DNA of 64,000 nucleotides from an archaeon. Its GTDB lineage: Archaea > Nanobdellota > Nanobdellia > Pacearchaeales > GW2011-AR1. Both the position numbers and the translations under genes were made by a program. The notes below the pieces were generated by a model. That model was not told where the DNA came from, did no database searches, and saw nothing but the letters and a program-made list of their open reading frames with translations. Positions 5,356 through 60,224 of the stretch are shown one piece after another. The DNA is taken from contig JABHSE010000004.1 in the NCBI GenBank assembly GCA_018697035.1, positions 259,300 to 323,299 of the forward strand, in the 5' to 3' direction. The stretch's first letter is position 1; every line of letters begins with the position of its first letter.

Positions 5356-5928
5356 ATGACATTCGATTACGTAAGCTATCTGATACTCCCCCTCCTAATC
5401 TTCCTAGCGAGAGTCGCAGACGTAAGTATCGGAACAGTCCGCCTAATCTTCGTAGCAAAAGGATTCAAATTCTTGTCTCCAATCCTAGGTTTCTTCGAAG
5501 TCTTAATCTACATAATAACGATGAGCAAAATCTTAGCCGACATGACAAACGTCTGGCTATATATCGCATACGCAGCCGGCTTCGCAACAGGAAACTACGT
5601 AGGAATATGCATCGAAGAAAAACTCTCCATCGGAAAAGTGCTAATAAGAATAATCACACAAAAAGATTCAAAGCAATTAATTGAAAATCTAAAAAACCAA
5701 AACTACAATCTAACAACAACAAACGCCAGAGGAAAAAGAGGAAAAGTTAAATTAATTTTCTCAGTAGTAAAGAAAAAAGAACTAGGTAAAATAATCAAAA
5801 TAATAAACGAGACAAACCCAAAATCATTTTATTCAATAGAAGACATACGCTATGCACAAGACAACAGCTTTATGCCTCAAGACATAACATCACTACAAAA
5901 ATCCAAATTCAACTTCAAAAGAAAATAA
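5356..5928 (+). CDS. UPF0316/DUF2179 family membrane protein
   Basis: The N-terminal LLIFLARVADVSIGTVRLIFVAKG pattern, three TM segments and a soluble C-terminal domain are typical of UPF0316. Confidence 0.65.
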   Translation: MTFDYVSYLILPLLIFLARVADVSIGTVRLIFVAKGFKFLSPILGFFEVLIYIITMSKILADMTNVWLYIAYAAGFATGNYVGICIEEKLSIGKVLIRIITQKDSKQLIENLKNQNYNLTTTNARGKRGKVKLIFSVVKKKELGKIIKIINETNPKSFYSIEDIRYAQDNSFMPQDITSLQKSKFNFKRK

Positions 5929-11834: not shown

Positions 11835-12697
11835 ATCAAAATCGCTCCCTTATACTGCCAATCATATCTCAAATGTCCATCCGGAAAGAAAATAACCTGC
11901 CTCATATTATCCCTCTCCGGCTCAATGGTCAAAGCACTTGTCAAGCAAACATTCTGACCCTCCAAATCATAAACGGTCGCACCATGAGCAAGCGCCAACA
12001 GCTGATTACCATTTTCCTTAACAAACAGTTCAATCTCAGAATAATTTTCATCACCAATCATATTCTCCATAGTCCAATCGTAAACACTCTTACACTCAGA
12101 ACCCTGCGGAGCTGCCAACTTCCTAAGACTCAACTGCTCAACCCCCCACCCCTTAACTTTCTTAATCAAAGCCAAAGCCTCATCCTTACTGTCAACAAAA
12201 CCCTTAACCAAAGTGCAACTAATCCTAACGGTATACCCGATATCATGCAACTTAGCAATCAACTTTTCCAAATCAAAATACTCACCCTCTGGAGTAAAAA
12301 TCAACTTATTCTTATCTCTCTCATAATGGACAATAGAAATAGCAATCGTAGTCAATCCAAGATCATACCACTTCTTCAAATACTCATCACAATCATCCCC
12401 CGCGAGAACAATACCATTCGTCTGAATCTCAATAAAAGGAAACTCAAATCTTTCCAACTTATTCAAAAACTCACTAATTTGTTCAGGAAAAAGGGTGGGC
12501 TCACCCTTACCAGTTATAAGAACAGTACTAACATCATTCATTTTAGAAAAATTACAAGCCTTCTCAAAGTTCCTCCAATTAACAACCGGCTCTTCCAAAC
12601 CAATACCCTGCTTCGGAGTCATCCGCGAAACACAATAGGGACATCTAGCGTTACAAGCCGAACTCCCAGCAACAATCGTCAATGTTTGAATCTTCAT
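11831..12697 (-). CDS. radical SAM enzyme, function unknown
   Basis: CNARCPYC (CxxxCxxC) cluster near the N-terminus, then GKGEPTL and IQTNG motifs. Confidence 0.75.
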   Translation of the reverse strand: MKIQTLTIVAGSSACNARCPYCVSRMTPKQGIGLEEPVVNWRNFEKACNFSKMNDVSTVLITGKGEPTLFPEQISEFLNKLERFEFPFIEIQTNGIVLAGDDCDEYLKKWYDLGLTTIAISIVHYERDKNKLIFTPEGEYFDLEKLIAKLHDIGYTVRISCTLVKGFVDSKDEALALIKKVKGWGVEQLSLRKLAAPQGSECKSVYDWTMENMIGDENYSEIELFVKENGNQLLALAHGATVYDLEGQNVCLTSALTIEPERDNMRQVIFFPDGHLRYDWQYKGAILI

Positions 12698-47396: not shown

Positions 47397-49799
47397 ATGG
47401 GTGAAAAATTCGTAGCATGGTTATCCGACCTTTCCAAGGCCGACCTAAACCTCGCAGGAGGAAAAGGCGCGAACCTAGGCGAAATGTTCAATTCAGGATT
47501 CCCAGTCCCACAGGCCTTTGCGGTAACAACAGATGCATTCTTCTTCTTCCTAAAACAAGCGAAACTCGAACAACAGATAAAAGATCTCCTTCATAAAATC
47601 GACGTCGACAAAACAGAAGATCTCCAAACAAAATCCAAAGAAATACGAGACTTAATATCAACTGCCGAAATGCCGAAAAACCTAGAAACCGAAATATTGG
47701 AAGCATACGATCATTTCAATGTAGATCTAAACGAAATCCAAAACTCGCCAGGCGCACTAGCAATCCTAAAATCAGCACGAGAACCAGTCTTCGTCTCAGT
47801 CCGAAGCTCAGCAACAGCAGAAGACCTGGGGGACGCATCATTCGCAGGACAACAATCTTCTTTCATAAACATCAAGGGAAACCCAGAGCTAATTCAAAAA
47901 GTAAAAGAATGCTTCGCCTCAATATTCACCGCACGTTCAATTTACTACCGAAAGAAAAAAGGCTTCGATGAATTAGTAGGCATCGCAGCAATCGTACAAA
48001 AGATGATAAATTCTGACAAGTCTGGTGTTATGTTTTCCAAGAACCCAGTTAAAAACAACGACGAAGTTTTAATAGAAGCAGTCTTTGGACAAGGCGAAGG
48101 AATAGTATCAGGAACAATTAAACCAGACCAATACACCCTCAATAGAAGCTTCGAAATCTTAGAAGAACACATTGCCGACAAAAAACTAGCAATCGTAAGA
48201 ACCGCAGGCGGCCAAACAAAAACCGTAACACTAACACCCGAAAAGTCTAACGAACGAGTCCTCAAAACCCACGAACTAAAACAACTAACCGAATTCGCAT
48301 TAAAACTAGAAAAACATTACGACAAACCACAAGACATCGAATTCGCAATAGAAAGCGACACAATATACATCTTACAGACAAGACCGATAACAACATTAAA
48401 AGAAAAATCAGATTCAGATGAACCGCAGGCCGAATTAGACGGACAAGTCATAACACAAGGAATGGCAGCATCCCCAGGAATCGCATCAGGCGTAGTAAAA
48501 ATAATCCATGAAATGTCCGACCTGGAAAAAATCAAACAAGGTGACATCTTAGTAACAACAATGACAAACCCAGATATGGTAGTCTCAATGCAAAAAGCCT
48601 CAGCAATCCTAACTTCAGAAGGAGGAGTAACGGCACATGCAGCGATAGTATCAAGAGAAATGGGAATACCAGCAATCGTCGGAGCACAAAACGCACTAGA
48701 AGTCCTAAAGGATGGAGACGAAATAACAATAGACGGATATACAGGTAAAGTATTCCAGGGAAGAGCCGAAAACAAATCAGTCGAAATCTTACCAATCGTC
48801 TCAACAAAAACAAAGATTAAAGTCCTAGTCGACCTTCCACAATTCGCCGCACGAGCCGCAAAAACAGAAGCATACGGAGTCGGACTAGTAAGACTAGAAG
48901 GACTAATCGCAACCTCAGGAAAACACCCACTAGCATACGAAGCCGAAGGCAAACTAGACGATTATAAAAACATGTTAAAAAAGGGACTCGGAGAAATAGC
49001 AGACACTTTCATTGGAAAACCAATATGGGTAAGATCCTCCGATATCAGAAGCGACGAATACTCAAACCTAGAAGGAGCTCCAAAAGAAATAGAAAAAAAC
49101 CCAATGCTTGGAGATCATGGAATCAGATTCTCATTAAAACATCCAGAGATATTCAAAGCAGAACTACTAGCAATGAAAGAGCTCGCAGACAAAGGCCACA
49201 AATTTGGAGTCATGTTCCCACAAATTATATCAGTAGATGAGGTGAAAAAAGCAAAAGCAATATTCAACGAACTAAAAATAAACAACGTCGCATTCGGAGT
49301 CATGATCGAAACACCAGCAGCAGCAATCCTAATAAAAGACATCTGTGAATGTGGAATCGACTTCGCCTCATTCGGAACAAACGACCTAACACAATATACC
49401 CTAGCAATCGACCGAGGTAATGAAGATGTTCAAGATATATACGACGAAATGAATTGGGCAGTTCTAAAACAAATCAGCCGAGTAATAAGAGAATGTAAAA
49501 AACAAGGAGTAGAATCTTCAATATGTGGACAAGCGGGATCAAAACCAGAGATGGTAAAATTCCTAATCAAGCAGGGAATAGACTCAATCTCTGTAAATGC
49601 CGACGCTGCAAAAGAAATCTCAGAGCTCATCCAAAAACTAGAAACAGATTCCCAAATAGAACCAATAAATAACAAAGAAGATATTAAGGAAGAATTAGAA
49701 GAAGTGAAAAAATCAGATGAAGAAGTGAAAAAGGAAAACATGAATCCAGAACCAGTAGAAGTTATTGAAGAATCCAAAAAGGAAGATATTTTTAATTAA
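47397..49799 (+). CDS. ppsA: phosphoenolpyruvate synthase (pyruvate, water dikinase)
   Basis: GGKGANLGEM, the phosphohistidine loop TSEGGVTAHAAIVSREMGIPA, and a C-terminal PEP-utilising TIM domain. An acidic tail follows. Confidence 0.9.
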   Translation: MGEKFVAWLSDLSKADLNLAGGKGANLGEMFNSGFPVPQAFAVTTDAFFFFLKQAKLEQQIKDLLHKIDVDKTEDLQTKSKEIRDLISTAEMPKNLETEILEAYDHFNVDLNEIQNSPGALAILKSAREPVFVSVRSSATAEDLGDASFAGQQSSFINIKGNPELIQKVKECFASIFTARSIYYRKKKGFDELVGIAAIVQKMINSDKSGVMFSKNPVKNNDEVLIEAVFGQGEGIVSGTIKPDQYTLNRSFEILEEHIADKKLAIVRTAGGQTKTVTLTPEKSNERVLKTHELKQLTEFALKLEKHYDKPQDIEFAIESDTIYILQTRPITTLKEKSDSDEPQAELDGQVITQGMAASPGIASGVVKIIHEMSDLEKIKQGDILVTTMTNPDMVVSMQKASAILTSEGGVTAHAAIVSREMGIPAIVGAQNALEVLKDGDEITIDGYTGKVFQGRAENKSVEILPIVSTKTKIKVLVDLPQFAARAAKTEAYGVGLVRLEGLIATSGKHPLAYEAEGKLDDYKNMLKKGLGEIADTFIGKPIWVRSSDIRSDEYSNLEGAPKEIEKNPMLGDHGIRFSLKHPEIFKAELLAMKELADKGHKFGVMFPQIISVDEVKKAKAIFNELKINNVAFGVMIETPAAAILIKDICECGIDFASFGTNDLTQYTLAIDRGNEDVQDIYDEMNWAVLKQISRVIRECKKQGVESSICGQAGSKPEMVKFLIKQGIDSISVNADAAKEISELIQKLETDSQIEPINNKEDIKEELEEVKKSDEEVKKENMNPEPVEVIEESKKEDIFN

Positions 49800-51618: not shown

Positions 51619-52254
51619 TCAACCATCCTCAAAAATCCGACTCCCAACACGAACCATATTACTCCCCTCCTCAATCGCCATCTCAAAATCCCCACTCATC
51701 CCCATTGACAAAATTTTCATAGAAAAACCCTTCTCTCTCAACTCATCAAACAAAACCTTCATTTTCCCAAATTCATCTCGACGACCTCTAGACCCAATAC
51801 ACATCAAACCAATAACCCGAACATTCTTTAAAACAGAAATCTCACTAATAAAATCCTCGACTTCTCCAGGCAAAACCCCACTCTTACTTTCCTCAAGAGA
51901 AATATTAACTTGAACCAAAACCGGCATCACCTTACCAACCTCACCAGCGAACCTGTCAATCAATCGCGCCACCTTCAGCCTATCGACACTCTGAATCAAA
52001 TCAAAATTCTCAACAATACTCCGAACTTTATTGGATTGAATAGTCCCAATAAAATGCTTCTTAACTTTTCCATCAAACTCACCAAACTTCCCCAACGCCT
52101 CACCAACTTGATTCTCTCCAATATCCCCAACCCCAAAACCAATCAACTCATTAATCTCCGCCACACTCCGCCTCTTCGTAACAGCAACTAATATCACTTC
52201 ACTCCCAATACTCTGTTTAATTCTAGTCAAATTATCTAAAATTTTACTCACCAT
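51619..52254 (-). CDS. yggS: YggS/PROSC-family PLP homeostasis protein
   Basis: LVAVTKRRS contains the PLP Lys. GENQVGEA and FIGTIQSNKV are family motifs. Confidence 0.85.
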   Translation of the reverse strand: MVSKILDNLTRIKQSIGSEVILVAVTKRRSVAEINELIGFGVGDIGENQVGEALGKFGEFDGKVKKHFIGTIQSNKVRSIVENFDLIQSVDRLKVARLIDRFAGEVGKVMPVLVQVNISLEESKSGVLPGEVEDFISEISVLKNVRVIGLMCIGSRGRRDEFGKMKVLFDELREKGFSMKILSMGMSGDFEMAIEEGSNMVRVGSRIFEDG

Positions 52255-52316
52255 AAAAAATCAAACTCTCCAAAACTTATAAAACTTCTGTCAAATAAAA
52301 CCAGTCAATAGTTTTA

Positions 52317-52407
52317 ATTATTAACAGGAAAGTTCGCAGTGTAAAAAAATACGAAGCGTACAAGCGTACGTGAGTATTTATTTTACCAAGAAATTTTCGT
52401 TAATAAT
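52317..52407. ncRNA. 91-nt structured hairpin element X (homolog of 59654-59744)
   Basis: Hand fold: 9-bp helix, bulged A, 5-bp helix, internal loop, 12-bp helix, GAAG junction, then a 5-bp stem with an AAGC loop. See the findings. Confidence 0.45.
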
Positions 52408-52412
52408 AAAAA

Positions 52413-54356
52413 TTAAGCCATCGGAGCCCCGCCAAACCGCGACTGTCCTCCGGCCATTTGTCCTCCAAGCTCAACAGGCATCGTTGTAAACCCAGCACCG
52501 AAATAAGTATGATGCGTCTGCGGATTCAAATTCCCATACCCACCAAAATAGTTACCCTGAAGATTAAAGGCCTGATCCCAGGTAGGACCATTCTTCATGC
52601 CATAAATACCAGAACCAAACGCAGCCAATGTCATAGAATGAGGAGCGACCTTAAAATGCTGAATCATCGAAGGCGCTTCAACAATCTTCCTCATCTCATC
52701 AAATCTCCCAGTTTTCTCCAACTCTTCTAGAATAGCCTTAATCGGAACGTTCCCCATACCAGGTGCCAAGTGTGTATCAGCATAACCAAAATTATCCGTC
52801 AAATGAATATGTTTAACCATCGACTTATCCTTCGAAATAATCTTCGTCTGCTCCACAACATCTTTCTCGGTAAATCCCTTCTTCCTCATAACATTCAAAT
52901 GCCCAACATCCCAAGTTACACCTAACTTATCCTCAGCCAACTTCTTCGCCTTACTCTTACTAACACCCTTATCAATCAAATGCTCCACAAAATTTTCTCT
53001 AGACTTCTCAACCAAATCCTTCATATCCTCAGCCCGCGAAAAGGCCATACCCTGAAACATATTCTCAACAGCCAAAACCGGCGCTTTATCCCCAAACTTA
53101 TCATAACTCCGCGCAGCCAAATTCCCAAAAGTCTTCGCAGCTTTCTCTTTCGCAAAATCCTCTCCCATCTTCCAAACCCCAGGTGTATCACGCCTAGTAA
53201 TCTTCTGCAACTCCTGAATAGACTTATCAATAAGCAACTGCTTCTGCACCGGAGCAAAAATGCCCATAACATTCTGATCTCTAGAAATAGGGACAACGTC
53301 ATGTATCCCCTCCGAAGCCTCAGAATAATTCTCAGATAACTTCTTCAATTTCTTCTTCTGCTCAGGAGTCCCATACTTATACGCTTGCCCAAAAGCCGAA
53401 ATAAACGACAACTCTGCATTCTCCATAAAAAGACTAGCCTTCCTCATCTTCTCATAAGCCCCAACTTGCCCACTATCAGAATCCAACTCCCCAACCTTCT
53501 CCCACGATCTACCTCCATCAATAGGCTTAACAATATGGTTAGTCCCCTCTTTGATAAACATATTCTCATACTCCCCCAAATTTATAGGCGCACTCCCAAT
53601 AATCTCATTAACATGCTTACTCATCTGTGCAACCTCAGTCAATTTATTCGACCACTCTCCATTATTCATAGCTTCAATACTTCCCTCCGCACTAAACAAC
53701 TTCCCAGCCTCACGTCCTTTAATGTGCCGAACCACAGGACGACCATCCGGACCTCTCTCAATAACCCCACCCTTCTCCAACAACTCCGGCATCTCCGGCC
53801 GAAACTTAAACTCCCTCTTAATCGGCTGAGCTTGCCCTGTATCTTGATTAATAGCCGTAGTTCTTTCTATCACATACTTCTTCTCCCCTAATTTCTCATC
53901 ACCAGGCCTCCATTCAGTCCCAGGCGCACCATTAGATGCATGCAAAACAATAGGCAAATTACCACTAGGATCCAAACCTTGCGCTTTCTCAATCGCACCA
54001 AACAGCCTCCTCTCGTTATCCGCTCTACCATCAGCAGTCCAACCCTGCTCCCCAAACCCAGCCGCATCAATAATAGGCGCATGCACAGAAGGCTTAATCC
54101 CAGTCAGTTTCATTAAGGCCCTCATCTCATCAAAATGCTGCCTAGGAATAGTCTCCGAAGCATTAGCATCCACCATAGTCACCTCGAAAGTCTTAGCTCC
54201 GTGCTTAACTGCATTAACAGTTTCTCCTAACTGATTAGCAGTTTGCGCCGATCCAGGAAAACCTAACTGCGAACCGCTCATTTTAAATCCAATACTATAT
54301 TCAGAATCAAAAGAAGAACCCCCTCCACTATAAAACCCTTCATAACTTTCAGCCAT
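52413..54356 (-). CDS. large xylose-isomerase-like TIM-barrel (AP endonuclease 2 superfamily) protein with a long insertion and Gly-rich termini
   Basis: SVHAP, IVLHAS, LAVENM, WDVGHLN and VKHIHLTDN..D.H are spaced like TIM-barrel metal ligands. SD GAGGTGAT 3 nt before the ATG. Confidence 0.5.
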   Translation of the reverse strand: MAESYEGFYSGGGSSFDSEYSIGFKMSGSQLGFPGSAQTANQLGETVNAVKHGAKTFEVTMVDANASETIPRQHFDEMRALMKLTGIKPSVHAPIIDAAGFGEQGWTADGRADNERRLFGAIEKAQGLDPSGNLPIVLHASNGAPGTEWRPGDEKLGEKKYVIERTTAINQDTGQAQPIKREFKFRPEMPELLEKGGVIERGPDGRPVVRHIKGREAGKLFSAEGSIEAMNNGEWSNKLTEVAQMSKHVNEIIGSAPINLGEYENMFIKEGTNHIVKPIDGGRSWEKVGELDSDSGQVGAYEKMRKASLFMENAELSFISAFGQAYKYGTPEQKKKLKKLSENYSEASEGIHDVVPISRDQNVMGIFAPVQKQLLIDKSIQELQKITRRDTPGVWKMGEDFAKEKAAKTFGNLAARSYDKFGDKAPVLAVENMFQGMAFSRAEDMKDLVEKSRENFVEHLIDKGVSKSKAKKLAEDKLGVTWDVGHLNVMRKKGFTEKDVVEQTKIISKDKSMVKHIHLTDNFGYADTHLAPGMGNVPIKAILEELEKTGRFDEMRKIVEAPSMIQHFKVAPHSMTLAAFGSGIYGMKNGPTWDQAFNLQGNYFGGYGNLNPQTHHTYFGAGFTTMPVELGGQMAGGQSRFGGAPMA

Positions 54357-57726: not shown

Positions 57727-59402
57727 AAATTTCCAAAGAAACAATCAAAGCCTACGCTCTAGAGAACGCAATCAAACACAAAGGCAAAGCATCACAAGGA
57801 GCAGTCCTAGCAGGTCTCTTCGCAGAAGGTTTAGAAAAATCCGAAATCAAAAATATGATACCCAAAATCCAACAGGTCCTAAAAAAAATAAACACCATGT
57901 CCGTAGAGCAACAACAGAAAGAATTCGAAAAAATAGATTCTAAAACATCCAAAAGAGAAATTAGAGAAGGGCTAAAGGAATTACCAAACGTAAAAGAAGG
58001 GAAAGTCATAATGAGATTAGCTCCCTTCCCGTCAGGACCTCTCCATATCGGAAACGCCAGAAATATGATTCTAAATGATGAATACGCAAAAATGTACAAC
58101 GGAAAATTATTATTATTTTTCGACGACACAATAGGTTCAGCGAATAAAAGAATAGAGCCAGAATCGTACGAATTAATCAAAGAAGGATTAGATTGGCTTG
58201 AAATAAACTACCATAAAAAAATAATATACAAATCAGATAGAACCAAGAAATACTACGAATATGCAGAAGAACTCCTAAAAAAAGGATACCTCTATGTCTG
58301 CCACTGCGACCAAGAAAAAATGCAAGACCTAAAAGCAAAAGGTATCGAATGCTCCTGTAGAAAATTCCCCCCAATGAAACAACTAACAAGGTGGAAAGAA
58401 ATGTTCACAGCCAAAATGGGTTCAATGACAGTCCGACTAAAAACTTCAATGCAAGATTCAGATCCAGCATTCCGAGATAGAGTCATGTTCAAAATATCAG
58501 ACTTCCCTCACCCAAAAACAAAAAACAAATTCAGAGTCTATCCTTCAATGGAATTCTCATGGGGAATCGACGACCACATCTTCGGCTCAACCCACATCCT
58601 AAGAGGAACCGACCATCAAATGTCAACCCGAGTCCAAGACTTCATAAGAGAAATATTCAAATGGCAAAACCCTGAATCATTTTACAACGGCCAATGCGAA
58701 ATCAAAGGTGTCAAAATATCAAAATCAAAAGGCACCCAAAAAATAAAATCCGGCGAGTACACAGGATGGAACGACCCCCGAACATGGTCACTACAAAGCC
58801 TTCGAGACAGAGGATTCAAACCCGAAGCAATCCGACAATTCATCCTAGCACTAAGCATCAAAAAAGCAAACATCACAACACCAGTAGAAGCTCTCTATAT
58901 CCTAAACAAAAAACTAATCGGAGACGCCCCAAGATACTTCTTCATAGAAAACCCACAAAAAATCACAATCAAGGGATGCCCTCATCTAACGGCGAAAATC
59001 CCTCGACACCCAAATAACAAATTAGGAAACAGAAAGCTAAAAACAACTCAGGAATTCTTAATATCTGAAAACGACTTCAATATAATGAACAATCAAGACT
59101 ATCGCCTAATGCATCTACTAACATTAAAATCAAGTAAAACAGGACTAAACCCCAGGGACTTTTCCTTTATATCAGAAGAACCACCAACCACAAAAACCAA
59201 ATTCCTACACTGGCTTCCAACATCCCCAAGCAATATTCATATACAGGTTGTAATGCCAGATGGAGAAATAAAAAAAGGATTAGGCGAATATGAATTAGAA
59301 AAATTAAAAGTAGGCAACATTATTCAATTCGAAAGGTTTGGATTTTGCAAATTACATAAAAAAGAAAAAGAAAAATTAGAATTCTGGTTTGCACATAATT
59401 AA
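57720..59402 (+). CDS. gltX: glutamyl-tRNA synthetase (archaeal/eukaryotic type) with an N-terminal GatB/YqeY-like appended domain
   Basis: PSGPLHIGNARN (HIGH) and VKISKSKG (KMSKS-like). The N-terminus KAYALENAIKHKGKASQGAVLAGLF is YqeY-like. Confidence 0.85.
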   Translation: MVKISKETIKAYALENAIKHKGKASQGAVLAGLFAEGLEKSEIKNMIPKIQQVLKKINTMSVEQQQKEFEKIDSKTSKREIREGLKELPNVKEGKVIMRLAPFPSGPLHIGNARNMILNDEYAKMYNGKLLLFFDDTIGSANKRIEPESYELIKEGLDWLEINYHKKIIYKSDRTKKYYEYAEELLKKGYLYVCHCDQEKMQDLKAKGIECSCRKFPPMKQLTRWKEMFTAKMGSMTVRLKTSMQDSDPAFRDRVMFKISDFPHPKTKNKFRVYPSMEFSWGIDDHIFGSTHILRGTDHQMSTRVQDFIREIFKWQNPESFYNGQCEIKGVKISKSKGTQKIKSGEYTGWNDPRTWSLQSLRDRGFKPEAIRQFILALSIKKANITTPVEALYILNKKLIGDAPRYFFIENPQKITIKGCPHLTAKIPRHPNNKLGNRKLKTTQEFLISENDFNIMNNQDYRLMHLLTLKSSKTGLNPRDFSFISEEPPTTKTKFLHWLPTSPSNIHIQVVMPDGEIKKGLGEYELEKLKVGNIIQFERFGFCKLHKKEKEKLEFWFAHN

Positions 59403-59602
59403 ATATTTTTATTCCGCAACCAAAACAAAATTCCCACAACACCAACAAACAAAACTCCAGTCAAAACATACCATCCAAAATTACTCTCTGGCTCAGGAAA
59501 CAAAAACAAAACAACAATCCCCACAATCACCACAACCGGAATCAACCTATCAACACTCTCGCCAACATTATTCAGAAACCCACCTCTACTAATCCATTTC
59601 AT
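59399..59602 (-). CDS. small two-TM membrane protein
   Basis: Start moved to the ATG at 59602 (MKWISRGG). The track N-terminus overlaps structured element Y. Confidence 0.4.
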   Translation of the reverse strand: MKWISRGGFLNNVGESVDRLIPVVVIVGIVVLFLFPEPESNFGWYVLTGVLFVGVVGILFWLRNKNI

Positions 59603-59653
59603 AAATATAAAAATTATCCAATCCTTAAAAATATTACTTTTCCAAACATTTTC

Positions 59654-59744
59654 AATTCTTAGCAGGTTTAGACGAGGCGAATAGTTCCGAAGTGTGCAAG
59701 CGCACATAAGGGTTTATTCAACGAAGTATAAACCGCTAAGAATT
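59654..59744. ncRNA. 91-nt structured hairpin element Y (homolog of 52317-52407)
   Basis: Same architecture as X, with compensatory helix changes. Confidence 0.45.
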
Positions 59745-59752
59745 AAAAATAA

Positions 59753-60151
59753 TCAACAACAATATAACTTATCCCTATCAATCTTCCCTTTCCCAAACGG
59801 ACTCCCCGTCTTCCTAATATTTGCAACCATCTCCTCATTCCCCTTCAAACCCTTCCCCATCAAAACCATAGCCTGCCTACATTTAAGCACCCCATCACAA
59901 ACCCAAATATTCAACGGACACGAAACACTGCAAGCCCGACACATATTACATTCAAATATAATCTTGTCCTGTACCTTAGCCGACAACAAATCCCCATGCC
60001 CTCTAGGCGAATACTGCTCCTCCCTCAAAACCCGAAACACTCCACACCGAGCCTTACACATCCCACACTGAACACAACTATCAAAAACCTCCGCAGCTTC
60101 CTCCATAAGATTACCCGCTTCAATCCTCGCAGCCTTACTAATTTTTGCCAT
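59753..60151 (-). CDS. 2x[4Fe-4S] ferredoxin-type iron-sulfur protein (GlcF/HdrC-like)
   Basis: CVQCGMCKARC and CNMCRACSVSCP cluster motifs. Start at the ATG at 60151. Confidence 0.7.
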   Translation of the reverse strand: MAKISKAARIEAGNLMEEAAEVFDSCVQCGMCKARCGVFRVLREEQYSPRGHGDLLSAKVQDKIIFECNMCRACSVSCPLNIWVCDGVLKCRQAMVLMGKGLKGNEEMVANIRKTGSPFGKGKIDRDKLYCC

Positions 60152-60224
60152 TATTTCATTAATATATATTGGTACTCTTTGAGAGCAGCCATATAAATAA
60201 AACAACTTAACACTACTTAAAAAT

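Follow-up and report, generated by a model that had tools for sequence, protein, structure and literature searches.

Two hairpin elements, X and Y, in a stretch of 64,000 nucleotides from a Pacearchaeales archaeon (the window) belong to a family of structured repeats of Pacearchaeota-type DPANN archaea; some bacteria have copies that share its apex and architecture. The family comprises two subtypes, pairs better on one strand than on the other, sits by rule at the 3' ends of genes and is gained and lost between relatives. The explanation favoured here, tentatively and with rather less than even confidence, is a non-autonomous mobile hairpin repeat that would be recognised in single-stranded form and would come to rest as a boundary at gene ends.

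The original prediction described X and Y as homologous 91-nt hairpins with an identical layered fold. Folding with ViennaRNA gives every one of the layers, and the two 91-nt cores read as quoted (52317-52407 for X and 59654-59744 for Y). The full hairpins are longer, as both elements continue outward through one mismatch into a TTTT/AAAA helix (P0, 4-5 bp) and reach 101-103 nt in total. Their parts are as follows.

52311-52413, + strand: element X, X-type, with P0, P1, bulged A, P1b, internal loop, P2, 3x2 junction loop, P3 and AAGC loop (82-97 bits by covariance model (CM), and by fold).
52317-52331, + strand: 5' arm of X, with P1 at 52317-52325, the bulged A at 52326 and P1b at 52327-52331; its partner is 52394-52407, and it covaries family-wide.
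52332-52340, + strand: 5' strand of the X-type internal loop, GTTCGCAGT, kept in all X-type copies.
52341-52386, + strand: core of X, with P2 at 52341-52352 paired with 52374-52386 (with a bulged A), from fold, motif search and alignment.
52353-52356 and 52371-52373, + strand: junction GAAG/TGA, part of the X core.
52357-52361 with 52366-52370, + strand: P3, also in the X core, with the AAGC loop at 52362-52365.
59649-59749, + strand: element Y, Y-type, of the same architecture as X (94-99 bits by CM, and by fold).
59671-59678, + strand: 5' strand of the Y-type internal loop, GACGAGGC, with its partner AACGAAGTA at 59720-59728, kept in the orthologue in L009 and in other Y-type copies.
59679-59719, + strand: core of Y, with P2 at 59679-59688 paired with 59710-59719, including G.U, U.U and U.G; the G.U pairs are kept in Y-type copies.
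Within 59679-59719, + strand: junction GAAG/TAA, P3 TGTGC/GCACA and loop AAGC of Y, from fold and alignment.

On the + strand the minimum free energy (MFE, ViennaRNA) is -26.9 kcal/mol for X and -36.4 kcal/mol for Y (z of -5.9 and -6.9), and none of 200 dinucleotide shuffles was as stable; the - strand folds more weakly (-19.3 and -28.8 kcal/mol, respectively). The motif GAAG-N5-AAGC-N5-TRAG occurs without mismatch exactly twice in the window, in X and in Y. Two details of the predicted fold had to be revised. The asymmetric internal loops are partly paired (UUC/GAA in X and AC/GU in Y), the UUC of the 5' strand of X pairing with the GAA of CAAGAAA (52387-52393) and leaving C-GCA-G opposite C-AA-G. 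The TTTATT tract, taken to be constant, is not family-wide, and typical Y-type copies have GCGTTCTTGC at that spot. The 5' strand of the junction is often GCGAAGC or GCGNAGC, in X (52349-52358) and in many other copies. As DNA this is the classic, very stable GNA mini-hairpin sequence; it could give an alternative local fold if the element acts as single-stranded DNA.

The homology of X and Y was borne out by covariance-model searches, which returned ~40 further full-length copies (60-103 bits), far more than chance would give, so the pair does not stand alone. Model R1, built on a structural alignment of X, Y and the L009 copy, was searched against 1.49 Mb around the TIM-barrel protein (TIM) gene, the neighbour of X, in 80 GTDB species, plus the window and L006-L009, and its matches were to a Y-type copy in L013 and to X-type copies in L026 and L036. 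The apex pattern CGNNGYGTRCAAGCGYACRTRAG, whose ascertainment is biased towards AAGC apices, picked out 47 loci in JGI metagenomes, and in these model R2 made 36 full-length matches of 62-99 bits, plus weaker ones (some of the contigs are duplicates); some of the R2 copies have apices outside the search pattern. Among the closest relatives, L006-L008 (TIM protein 71-78% identical) have no element at the X or Y sites, and L009 (69% identical) carries a syntenic Y. The apex pattern had no match in viral contigs, and BLAST of one bacterial apex against plasmids and phages gave chance matches only, the best of which (a Ralstonia megaplasmid) forms no hairpin.

The family is absent from Rfam. When X, Y and the bacterial copies were searched against Rfam 15 at gathering and at permissive thresholds, only tRNA, rRNA and tmRNA passed, and the best matches on the elements themselves were to miRNA and snoRNA models, at 14-32 bits against thresholds of 37-160. 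A literature search on hairpin repeats of DPANN or Pacearchaeota found nothing relevant. The elements lack the signature sequences of SRP RNA, 6S RNA, T-box stem I, retron ncRNA and ssoA-type origins, all of which were rejected on that ground; K-turn, sarcin-ricin and SECIS-like readings of the GAAG/TRA loop, compared by hand, misfit in strand arrangement or loop sizes.

The bacterial copies (L102, L107, L098, L126, L103 and L124) are near-perfect, G.U-rich hairpins of 40-46 bp with the common apex ATGC-GAAG-CGTGC-AAGC-GCACG-TGAG and a bulged A 26 nt before the junction. Two of them, which adjoin tRNA-Sec (L102 and L107), have the apex in common and stems that are wholly different and compensated. 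Three other copies (L013:12939-13093, L093:5034-5175 and L123:1225-1359) hold extra hairpin-forming inserts of 35-55 nt in the internal loop or apex, with the outer helices intact.

The copies fall into two subtypes. X-type copies have the internal-loop strands TTCGCAG and CAAGAAATT and a P2 of GTAAAAAAAT/ATTT(A/C)TTTTAC. Y-type copies have the loop strands GACGAGGC and AACGAAGTAT (the 3' strand is also written AACGA(A/C)GTAT) and a P2 of G.AAGG-TT-GC with conserved G.U, U.U and U.G. Both subtypes occur on the same contigs (L108, L097, L106 and L093), and ~90% of each core is kept even where the genomes have diverged deeply; the X core of L026, for example, is ~92% identical to that of the window, at a TIM protein identity of only 53%. 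The outer arms (P0, P1 and P1b) show compensated differences between clades and are similar within one contig. One motif recurs inside the hairpins: 5'-C-GNA-G-3' opposite 5'-Y-RA-G-3' is the sub-apical junction in all copies, is also the X-type internal loop (C-GCA-G/C-AA-G) and, flipped, is part of the Y-type loop (C-GA-G/C-GAA-G).

Selection on the fold is seen in an alignment of 41 sequences fitted to the model, in which two P3 pairs were constrained by the search pattern and P0, P1, P1b and P2 were unconstrained. In this alignment 94.2% of cells are paired, compared with 72.7% when partners are shuffled and 37-52% when they are slid, and the covariation score is 0.549 versus 0.187. Double-sided changes occur in 34 of the 37 pairs, so the proposal that the helices change while pairing stays, first made from X and Y, holds well beyond those two. 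The paired columns contain 76 G.U and 22 A.C. Three inherited Y-type positions contribute 32 of the G.U, and the remainder is still 2:1. The flanking + strand is strongly C/A-rich, which would favour A.C, yet it is G.U that is in excess, as expected from selection for pairing on the + strand; to judge from the 76:22 ratio in the sequences, it is on the + strand of the window that the fold is selected. The bacterial copies of L098, L102 and L107 have 7-10 G.U and an MFE of -52 to -66 kcal/mol on the folding strand, and 0-1 G.U and -26 to -42 kcal/mol on its complement.

The placement of the copies is equally regular. For 45 of the 48 copies, the distance from the 3' end of the folding strand to the 3' end of an opposite-strand gene falls between -21 and +10 nt. 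The abutted ORFs encode S7, EF-2, EF-1a, DnaG, RadA, RNase Z, ProRS and others; elsewhere the abutted gene is a tRNA (L109, L117 and L098), tRNA-Sec next to SelA (L102 and L107) or tmRNA (L126), and one copy (L133) stands at the 3' end of 16S rRNA within a 16S-tRNA-Ala-23S operon. The SelA and tmRNA genes, together with a GAD-domain AspRS, identify several loci as bacterial. The exceptions are L095, L118 and L132, which represent one locus type (the element has tRNA-Gly and tRNA-Cys on either side and shares their strand), and the truncated L127. Archaeal copies have conserved flanks, 5'-AACA and 3'-TA, and the terminal TA makes a TAA on the gene strand even beside tRNA and rRNA genes. TATA-like boxes upstream of the hairpins lie at -15 to -55, at no fixed distance. 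After the hairpin, + strand T-runs do not exceed four within 25 nt in 35 of 37 copies. On the gene strand T3-T4 is common, X-type copies have an internal T7 (the complement of GTAAAAAAAT) and Y-type copies have no T-run of at least five. The L133 copy (L133:3275-3377) begins 0-2 nt past the 16S 3' end, before tRNA-Ala and 23S, and is antisense to this archaeal rRNA operon. The LSU match of the same locus spans model positions 1-2987 within ~2 kb of DNA, and its 23S looks heavily reduced or interrupted.

In the window the genes around the two elements are the following.

52413-54356, - strand: 647-aa TIM-barrel (AP_endonuc_2) protein, abutted by X; X ends opposite the final A of the TAA stop.
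51619-52254, - strand: YggS-like PLP protein, the next gene after X on the gene strand, with a TATA-like TTTTATAA at 52277-52284 (-) between X and the ATG.
59753-60205, - strand: 150-aa 4Fe-4S dicluster protein, abutted by Y; the stop TGA is 3 nt from the end of Y.
59399-59602, - strand: 67-aa membrane protein (ATG at 59602), the next gene after Y, with a TATA-like box at 59625-59632 between Y and the ATG.

The better-folding + strand of X and Y is thus antisense to both neighbour genes. The TATA-like box between X and the YggS-like ATG would place X upstream of the predicted promoter of that gene, and since each element touches a stop codon and the next TATA-like box lies beyond it, both appear to be located, on the gene strand, downstream of one gene and upstream of the promoter of the next. 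The boxes are centred ~26 nt before the start codons of the YggS-like gene (52254-52284) and the 67-aa membrane-protein gene (59602-59632), a spacing that implies leaderless mRNAs. The 5' ends of X and Y are 15-35 nt away from these boxes, so that divergent transcription into the elements is conceivable. A mechanical ORF of 102 aa (59399-59707, - strand) extends into Y. Its plausible start is the ATG at 59602, giving 67 aa with two predicted membrane helices, and gene callers could falsely lengthen this ORF across Y.

The archaeon of the window is a marine one: proteins 100% identical to the TIM protein adjoining X occur on Saanich Inlet and other marine contigs, and its homologues are labelled Pacearchaeota, Nanoarchaeota or Woesearchaeota. 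The X region is identical in the five contigs with the identical TIM protein, which are hence uninformative on population variation. GC skew is -0.04 to -0.56 over the whole window with positive AT skew, and strand asymmetry is extreme in most of the Pacearchaeota loci L090-L136 as well. Genes on the + strand (e.g., PPDK, 47397-49799) have a GC skew near 0 and an AT skew of +0.40, a pattern suggesting that replication contributes largely, in addition to coding bias. The folding strand is the C-rich strand in every archaeal element, and replichore and neighbour-gene strand are confounded as determinants of element orientation in every locus sampled.

Gain and loss were found by searching the sampled loci with joined flanks, which identified five junction-spanning empty sites in relatives, 72-86% identical. 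At a filled site the element takes the place of the last codons and the stop, or encodes them (L108:12501 compared with L112, L094 with L092 and L123 with L108), and at EF-1a (L108 compared with L123) it overlaps the conserved last codon; the alignments of filled and empty alleles are too diverged to place exact boundaries. The empty EF-1a site (L123:341-732) has a short hairpin, AAGGTCTAATTGACCTC, whose first two bases are the final AA of the TAA stop, and then TTTTTATTTTT; this short hairpin with T-runs may represent the ordinary terminator of these genomes.

Copy density is highest in L108, with six copies in a 14-kb locus; L093, L094, L097 and L106 have two copies each. The 64-kb window has two (model R3, filters off), and the TIM loci of 80 related species have four in 1.42 Mb. 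Orthologous copies with compensatory changes persist at one site in the window, L121 and L026 (X) and in the window and L009 (Y). Gene order around the elements varies, an X-type copy following the TIM gene in the window and L026 and NTP_transf in L036, and a Y-type copy following NTP_transf in L013. As a flanking duplication AATT alone recurs (21 of 37), and it is self-complementary and lies within the stem. A chimeric copy (L104:3651-3753) combines a 5' half and flank that match X and the window's YggS side exactly with a 3' half and flank from a copy that follows a KH-domain gene (as L093:5034), leaving P1 and the top of P2 unpaired; either two copies have recombined or the metagenome was mis-assembled at the repeat.

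Candidates for a mobilising enzyme were sought in the sampled DNA. No distant pairs of the arm motif, as expected of an autonomous partner with the same ends, occur in ~1.8 Mb. With approximate IS608 TnpA and E. coli RAYT queries, tblastn detected IS200-like genes only in the element-free L060, and a weak match in L008. The L060 genes are two IS200/IS605 TnpA-like genes (5374-5754 and 11935-12294) in a Woesearchaeota locus that lacks the hairpin element. A Pfam survey of 124 neighbouring ORFs showed only housekeeping families, and no integrase, among the matches listed (25 of 122 families).

In lifestyle the family comes nearest to the REP/REPIN or MITE class. REPINs are extragenic imperfect palindromes of ~100 bp that are multi-copy, located at gene 3' ends, long-persisting, conserved as hairpins and recognised single-stranded; their two inverted REP ends are conserved, each with its own ~14-bp palindrome, around a variable spacer, and they are stated to be undetected in archaea (10.1101/2021.07.10.451892). 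The present family likewise consists of multi-copy, extragenic palindromes of ~100 bp, whose density varies widely, between 2 per 64 kb and 6 per 14 kb. It differs from REPINs in that its centre is conserved and its ends are variable and compensated, in that it spans archaea and bacteria, and in that no RAYT was seen with the approximate queries used. Correia, ERIC, RUP and Rickettsia palindromic elements are dispersed, long hairpins of 100-150 nt that lie beside genes or in frame in gene ends and vary between strains. They have conserved terminal inverted repeats, usually with a TA-type duplication, are near-identical within a species and are not known to be related between phyla. In contrast to these MITE-type repeats of bacteria, the family has no clear duplication, its ends diverge with compensation and its core is common across domains. 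A MITE had been named as the alternative to a selected structure, and the dispersed, gained-and-lost behaviour of the family comes close to it; a clear target-site duplication is missing, however, and covariation goes well beyond the pair. Inverted conservation, a cross-domain core and an antisense, RNA-like constraint together place the family outside every defined one.

In the favoured explanation X and Y would be one copy per subtype of a dispersed family of imperfect palindromes of ~101-105 nt that spreads duplicatively and non-autonomously, with a lifestyle like that of REPINs and MITEs. Its duplicative, non-autonomous nature is suggested by multi-copy dispersal combined with presence/absence polymorphism and overlap with ORF ends. 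A trans-acting protein would recognise the single-stranded hairpin (RNA, possibly ssDNA), probably through the recurrent C-GNA-G/Y-RA-G loops and the apical stem-loop. A resting copy would serve, or be tolerated, as a gene-end boundary or insulator where a short hairpin with a T-run would normally be the terminator. The asymmetry in G.U, the deep conservation of the cores and the retention of orthologous copies with compensation point to recognition of the single-stranded + strand by something conserved, and the same three observations suggest that resident copies are not neutral. Against a mobile repeat, the conserved and variable parts are reversed from those of REPINs and MITEs (core ~90% identical where the flanking protein is ~50% identical), the only candidate target-site duplication is the self-complementary AATT, and transposase, RAYT or integrase genes were not seen near the copies. 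The persistence of orthologous copies with compensatory changes argues for function at each locus over pure selfishness.

The main rival, which we regard as rather unlikely taken by itself, is the original prediction minus its guide idea: a stable structured non-coding RNA family made from the + strand, as genes or as processed units, whose conserved apex and C-GNA-G loops would be bound by a widely conserved protein. Such an RNA would be cut from divergent or convergent read-through transcripts and would need no promoter or terminator of its own; in one version the hairpin would stop or neutralise polymerases that enter the 3' end of the neighbour gene in antisense. It would explain a G.U excess that runs counter to the local C/A-rich mutational trend, the ~90% core over deep divergence with an apex kept from archaea to bacteria, the compensated orthologues and a hairpin that ends just short of the opposite-strand gene, and the TATA box of the next gene, 15-35 nt upstream of the hairpin 5' end in X and Y, fits divergent transcription. 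It is harder to reconcile with a TATA distance that varies from -15 to -55, with the lack of a T-run or other terminator after the hairpin on that strand, with presence or absence between close relatives and with six copies of two sequence classes in 14 kb, which is odd for an RNA gene. A bolder conclusion, and an unlikely one, is that the family is an unrecognised class of structured RNA common to DPANN archaea and bacteria, antisense to the neighbour gene and bound by a widely conserved protein via the apex and the C-GNA-G loops, which would act as a portable gene-end module (e.g., a barrier to antisense or convergent transcription) or spread via RNA as a prokaryotic SINE-like element. Ranked third, and in our estimate quite improbable, is a 3'-end element of the gene (-) strand, i.e., a terminator and/or 3'-exonuclease block for the abutted gene. 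The location is exactly that of a terminator, often behind highly expressed genes (S7, EF-2, EF-1a, tRNAs and 16S rRNA); a short hairpin with a T-run takes its place in one empty allele, the element opens with TAA-TTTT(T) on the gene strand and in X-type copies the apical hairpin is followed by the conserved T7. X-type copies also resemble intrinsic or bidirectional terminators in having A-rich and T-rich arms around a G+C-rich apical hairpin. Terminators nevertheless differ from elements of ~100 nt with conserved internal loops: pairing is best, and apparently selected, on the antisense strand, the gene strand having A.C mismatches where the + strand has G.U, Y-type copies have no gene-strand T-run of at least five and one copy occupies an rRNA operon spacer, where termination would harm. 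The mobile-repeat, + strand RNA and gene-strand terminator readings are not mutually exclusive.

Two further readings fare worse. An attC-like site, whose folded strand would be recombined by a tyrosine recombinase with the genes between elements as cassettes, is very improbable in spite of a geometry like that of the attC bottom strand: an imperfect hairpin, specific to one strand, that is ~100 nt long, has an extrahelical base and lies at a stop codon, with the folded strand antisense to the upstream ORF and genes in same-direction runs. Gene order around the elements does differ between relatives, and integrons are reported from archaea, including Nanoarchaeota (PMC9668308). The attC boxes RYYYAAC/GTTRRRY, however, are not at the base, which is ATTTT/AAAAT; AAC/GTT occurs in some X-type copies only, ~15 nt inside, and most copies have AGC/GCT there. 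The apex is conserved where that of attC is variable, no integrase was seen among the neighbour families listed (25 of 122), and in place of cassettes beside intI the neighbours are core housekeeping genes, some in canonical order (S7, EF-2 and EF-1a), with DnaG, RadA, RNase Z, tRNAs and 16S rRNA or an rRNA spacer. The remaining reading, a guide RNA, H/ACA-like or other, that would pair with a target through its internal loop, is effectively refuted. In its favour, the element is one hairpin in which two helices enclose an internal loop and a GA-containing loop lies under the apex, as in archaeal H/ACA sRNAs, and each loop is conserved in orthologous copies, with X differing from Y; the original prediction had likened the variable internal loop on a fixed scaffold to a guide RNA pocket. 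The ~40 copies give only two conserved loop classes, each recurring several times even within one contig, and fixed classes repeated so many times are not guides; the loops are, moreover, largely self-paired. No match of at least nine pairs, and no bipartite target, was found for the loops in the 16S (partial), tRNA-Ala and 23S of the relative L133 (shuffled mean 0.08-0.14); the host's own rRNA lies outside the window. The misfit to archaeal H/ACA rules in helix lengths and 3' flank, noted at the outset, was upheld. An ACA (ANA) is required 14-16 nt 3' of the pocket's top and immediately behind the lower stem, and nucleotides 13-16 after P2 are GUUA in X and CCGC in Y, with a tail of AAAAAU. 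The lower stem has 9-10 bp, a bulge and 5-6 bp (15-16 bp in all) plus P0 where ~9 bp are expected. The junction lacks K-turn or K-loop geometry, as it sets 5'-GNN-3' against 5'-RA-3' (3x2) between C-G and G.U/G-C, with only the first G.A invariant.

If the family is indeed a mobile repeat of the REP/REPIN type, it would be a first well-defined example in DPANN archaea, with unusual traits: a core common to two domains, a G.U constraint antisense to the neighbour gene and a habit of occupying gene 3' ends and supplying their stops. The elements alter the called C-termini of proteins and create repeats able to mis-join metagenome assemblies, as the L104 chimera illustrates. For uncultivated organisms with highly compact genomes, they provide a way to study transcription boundaries and genome rearrangement.
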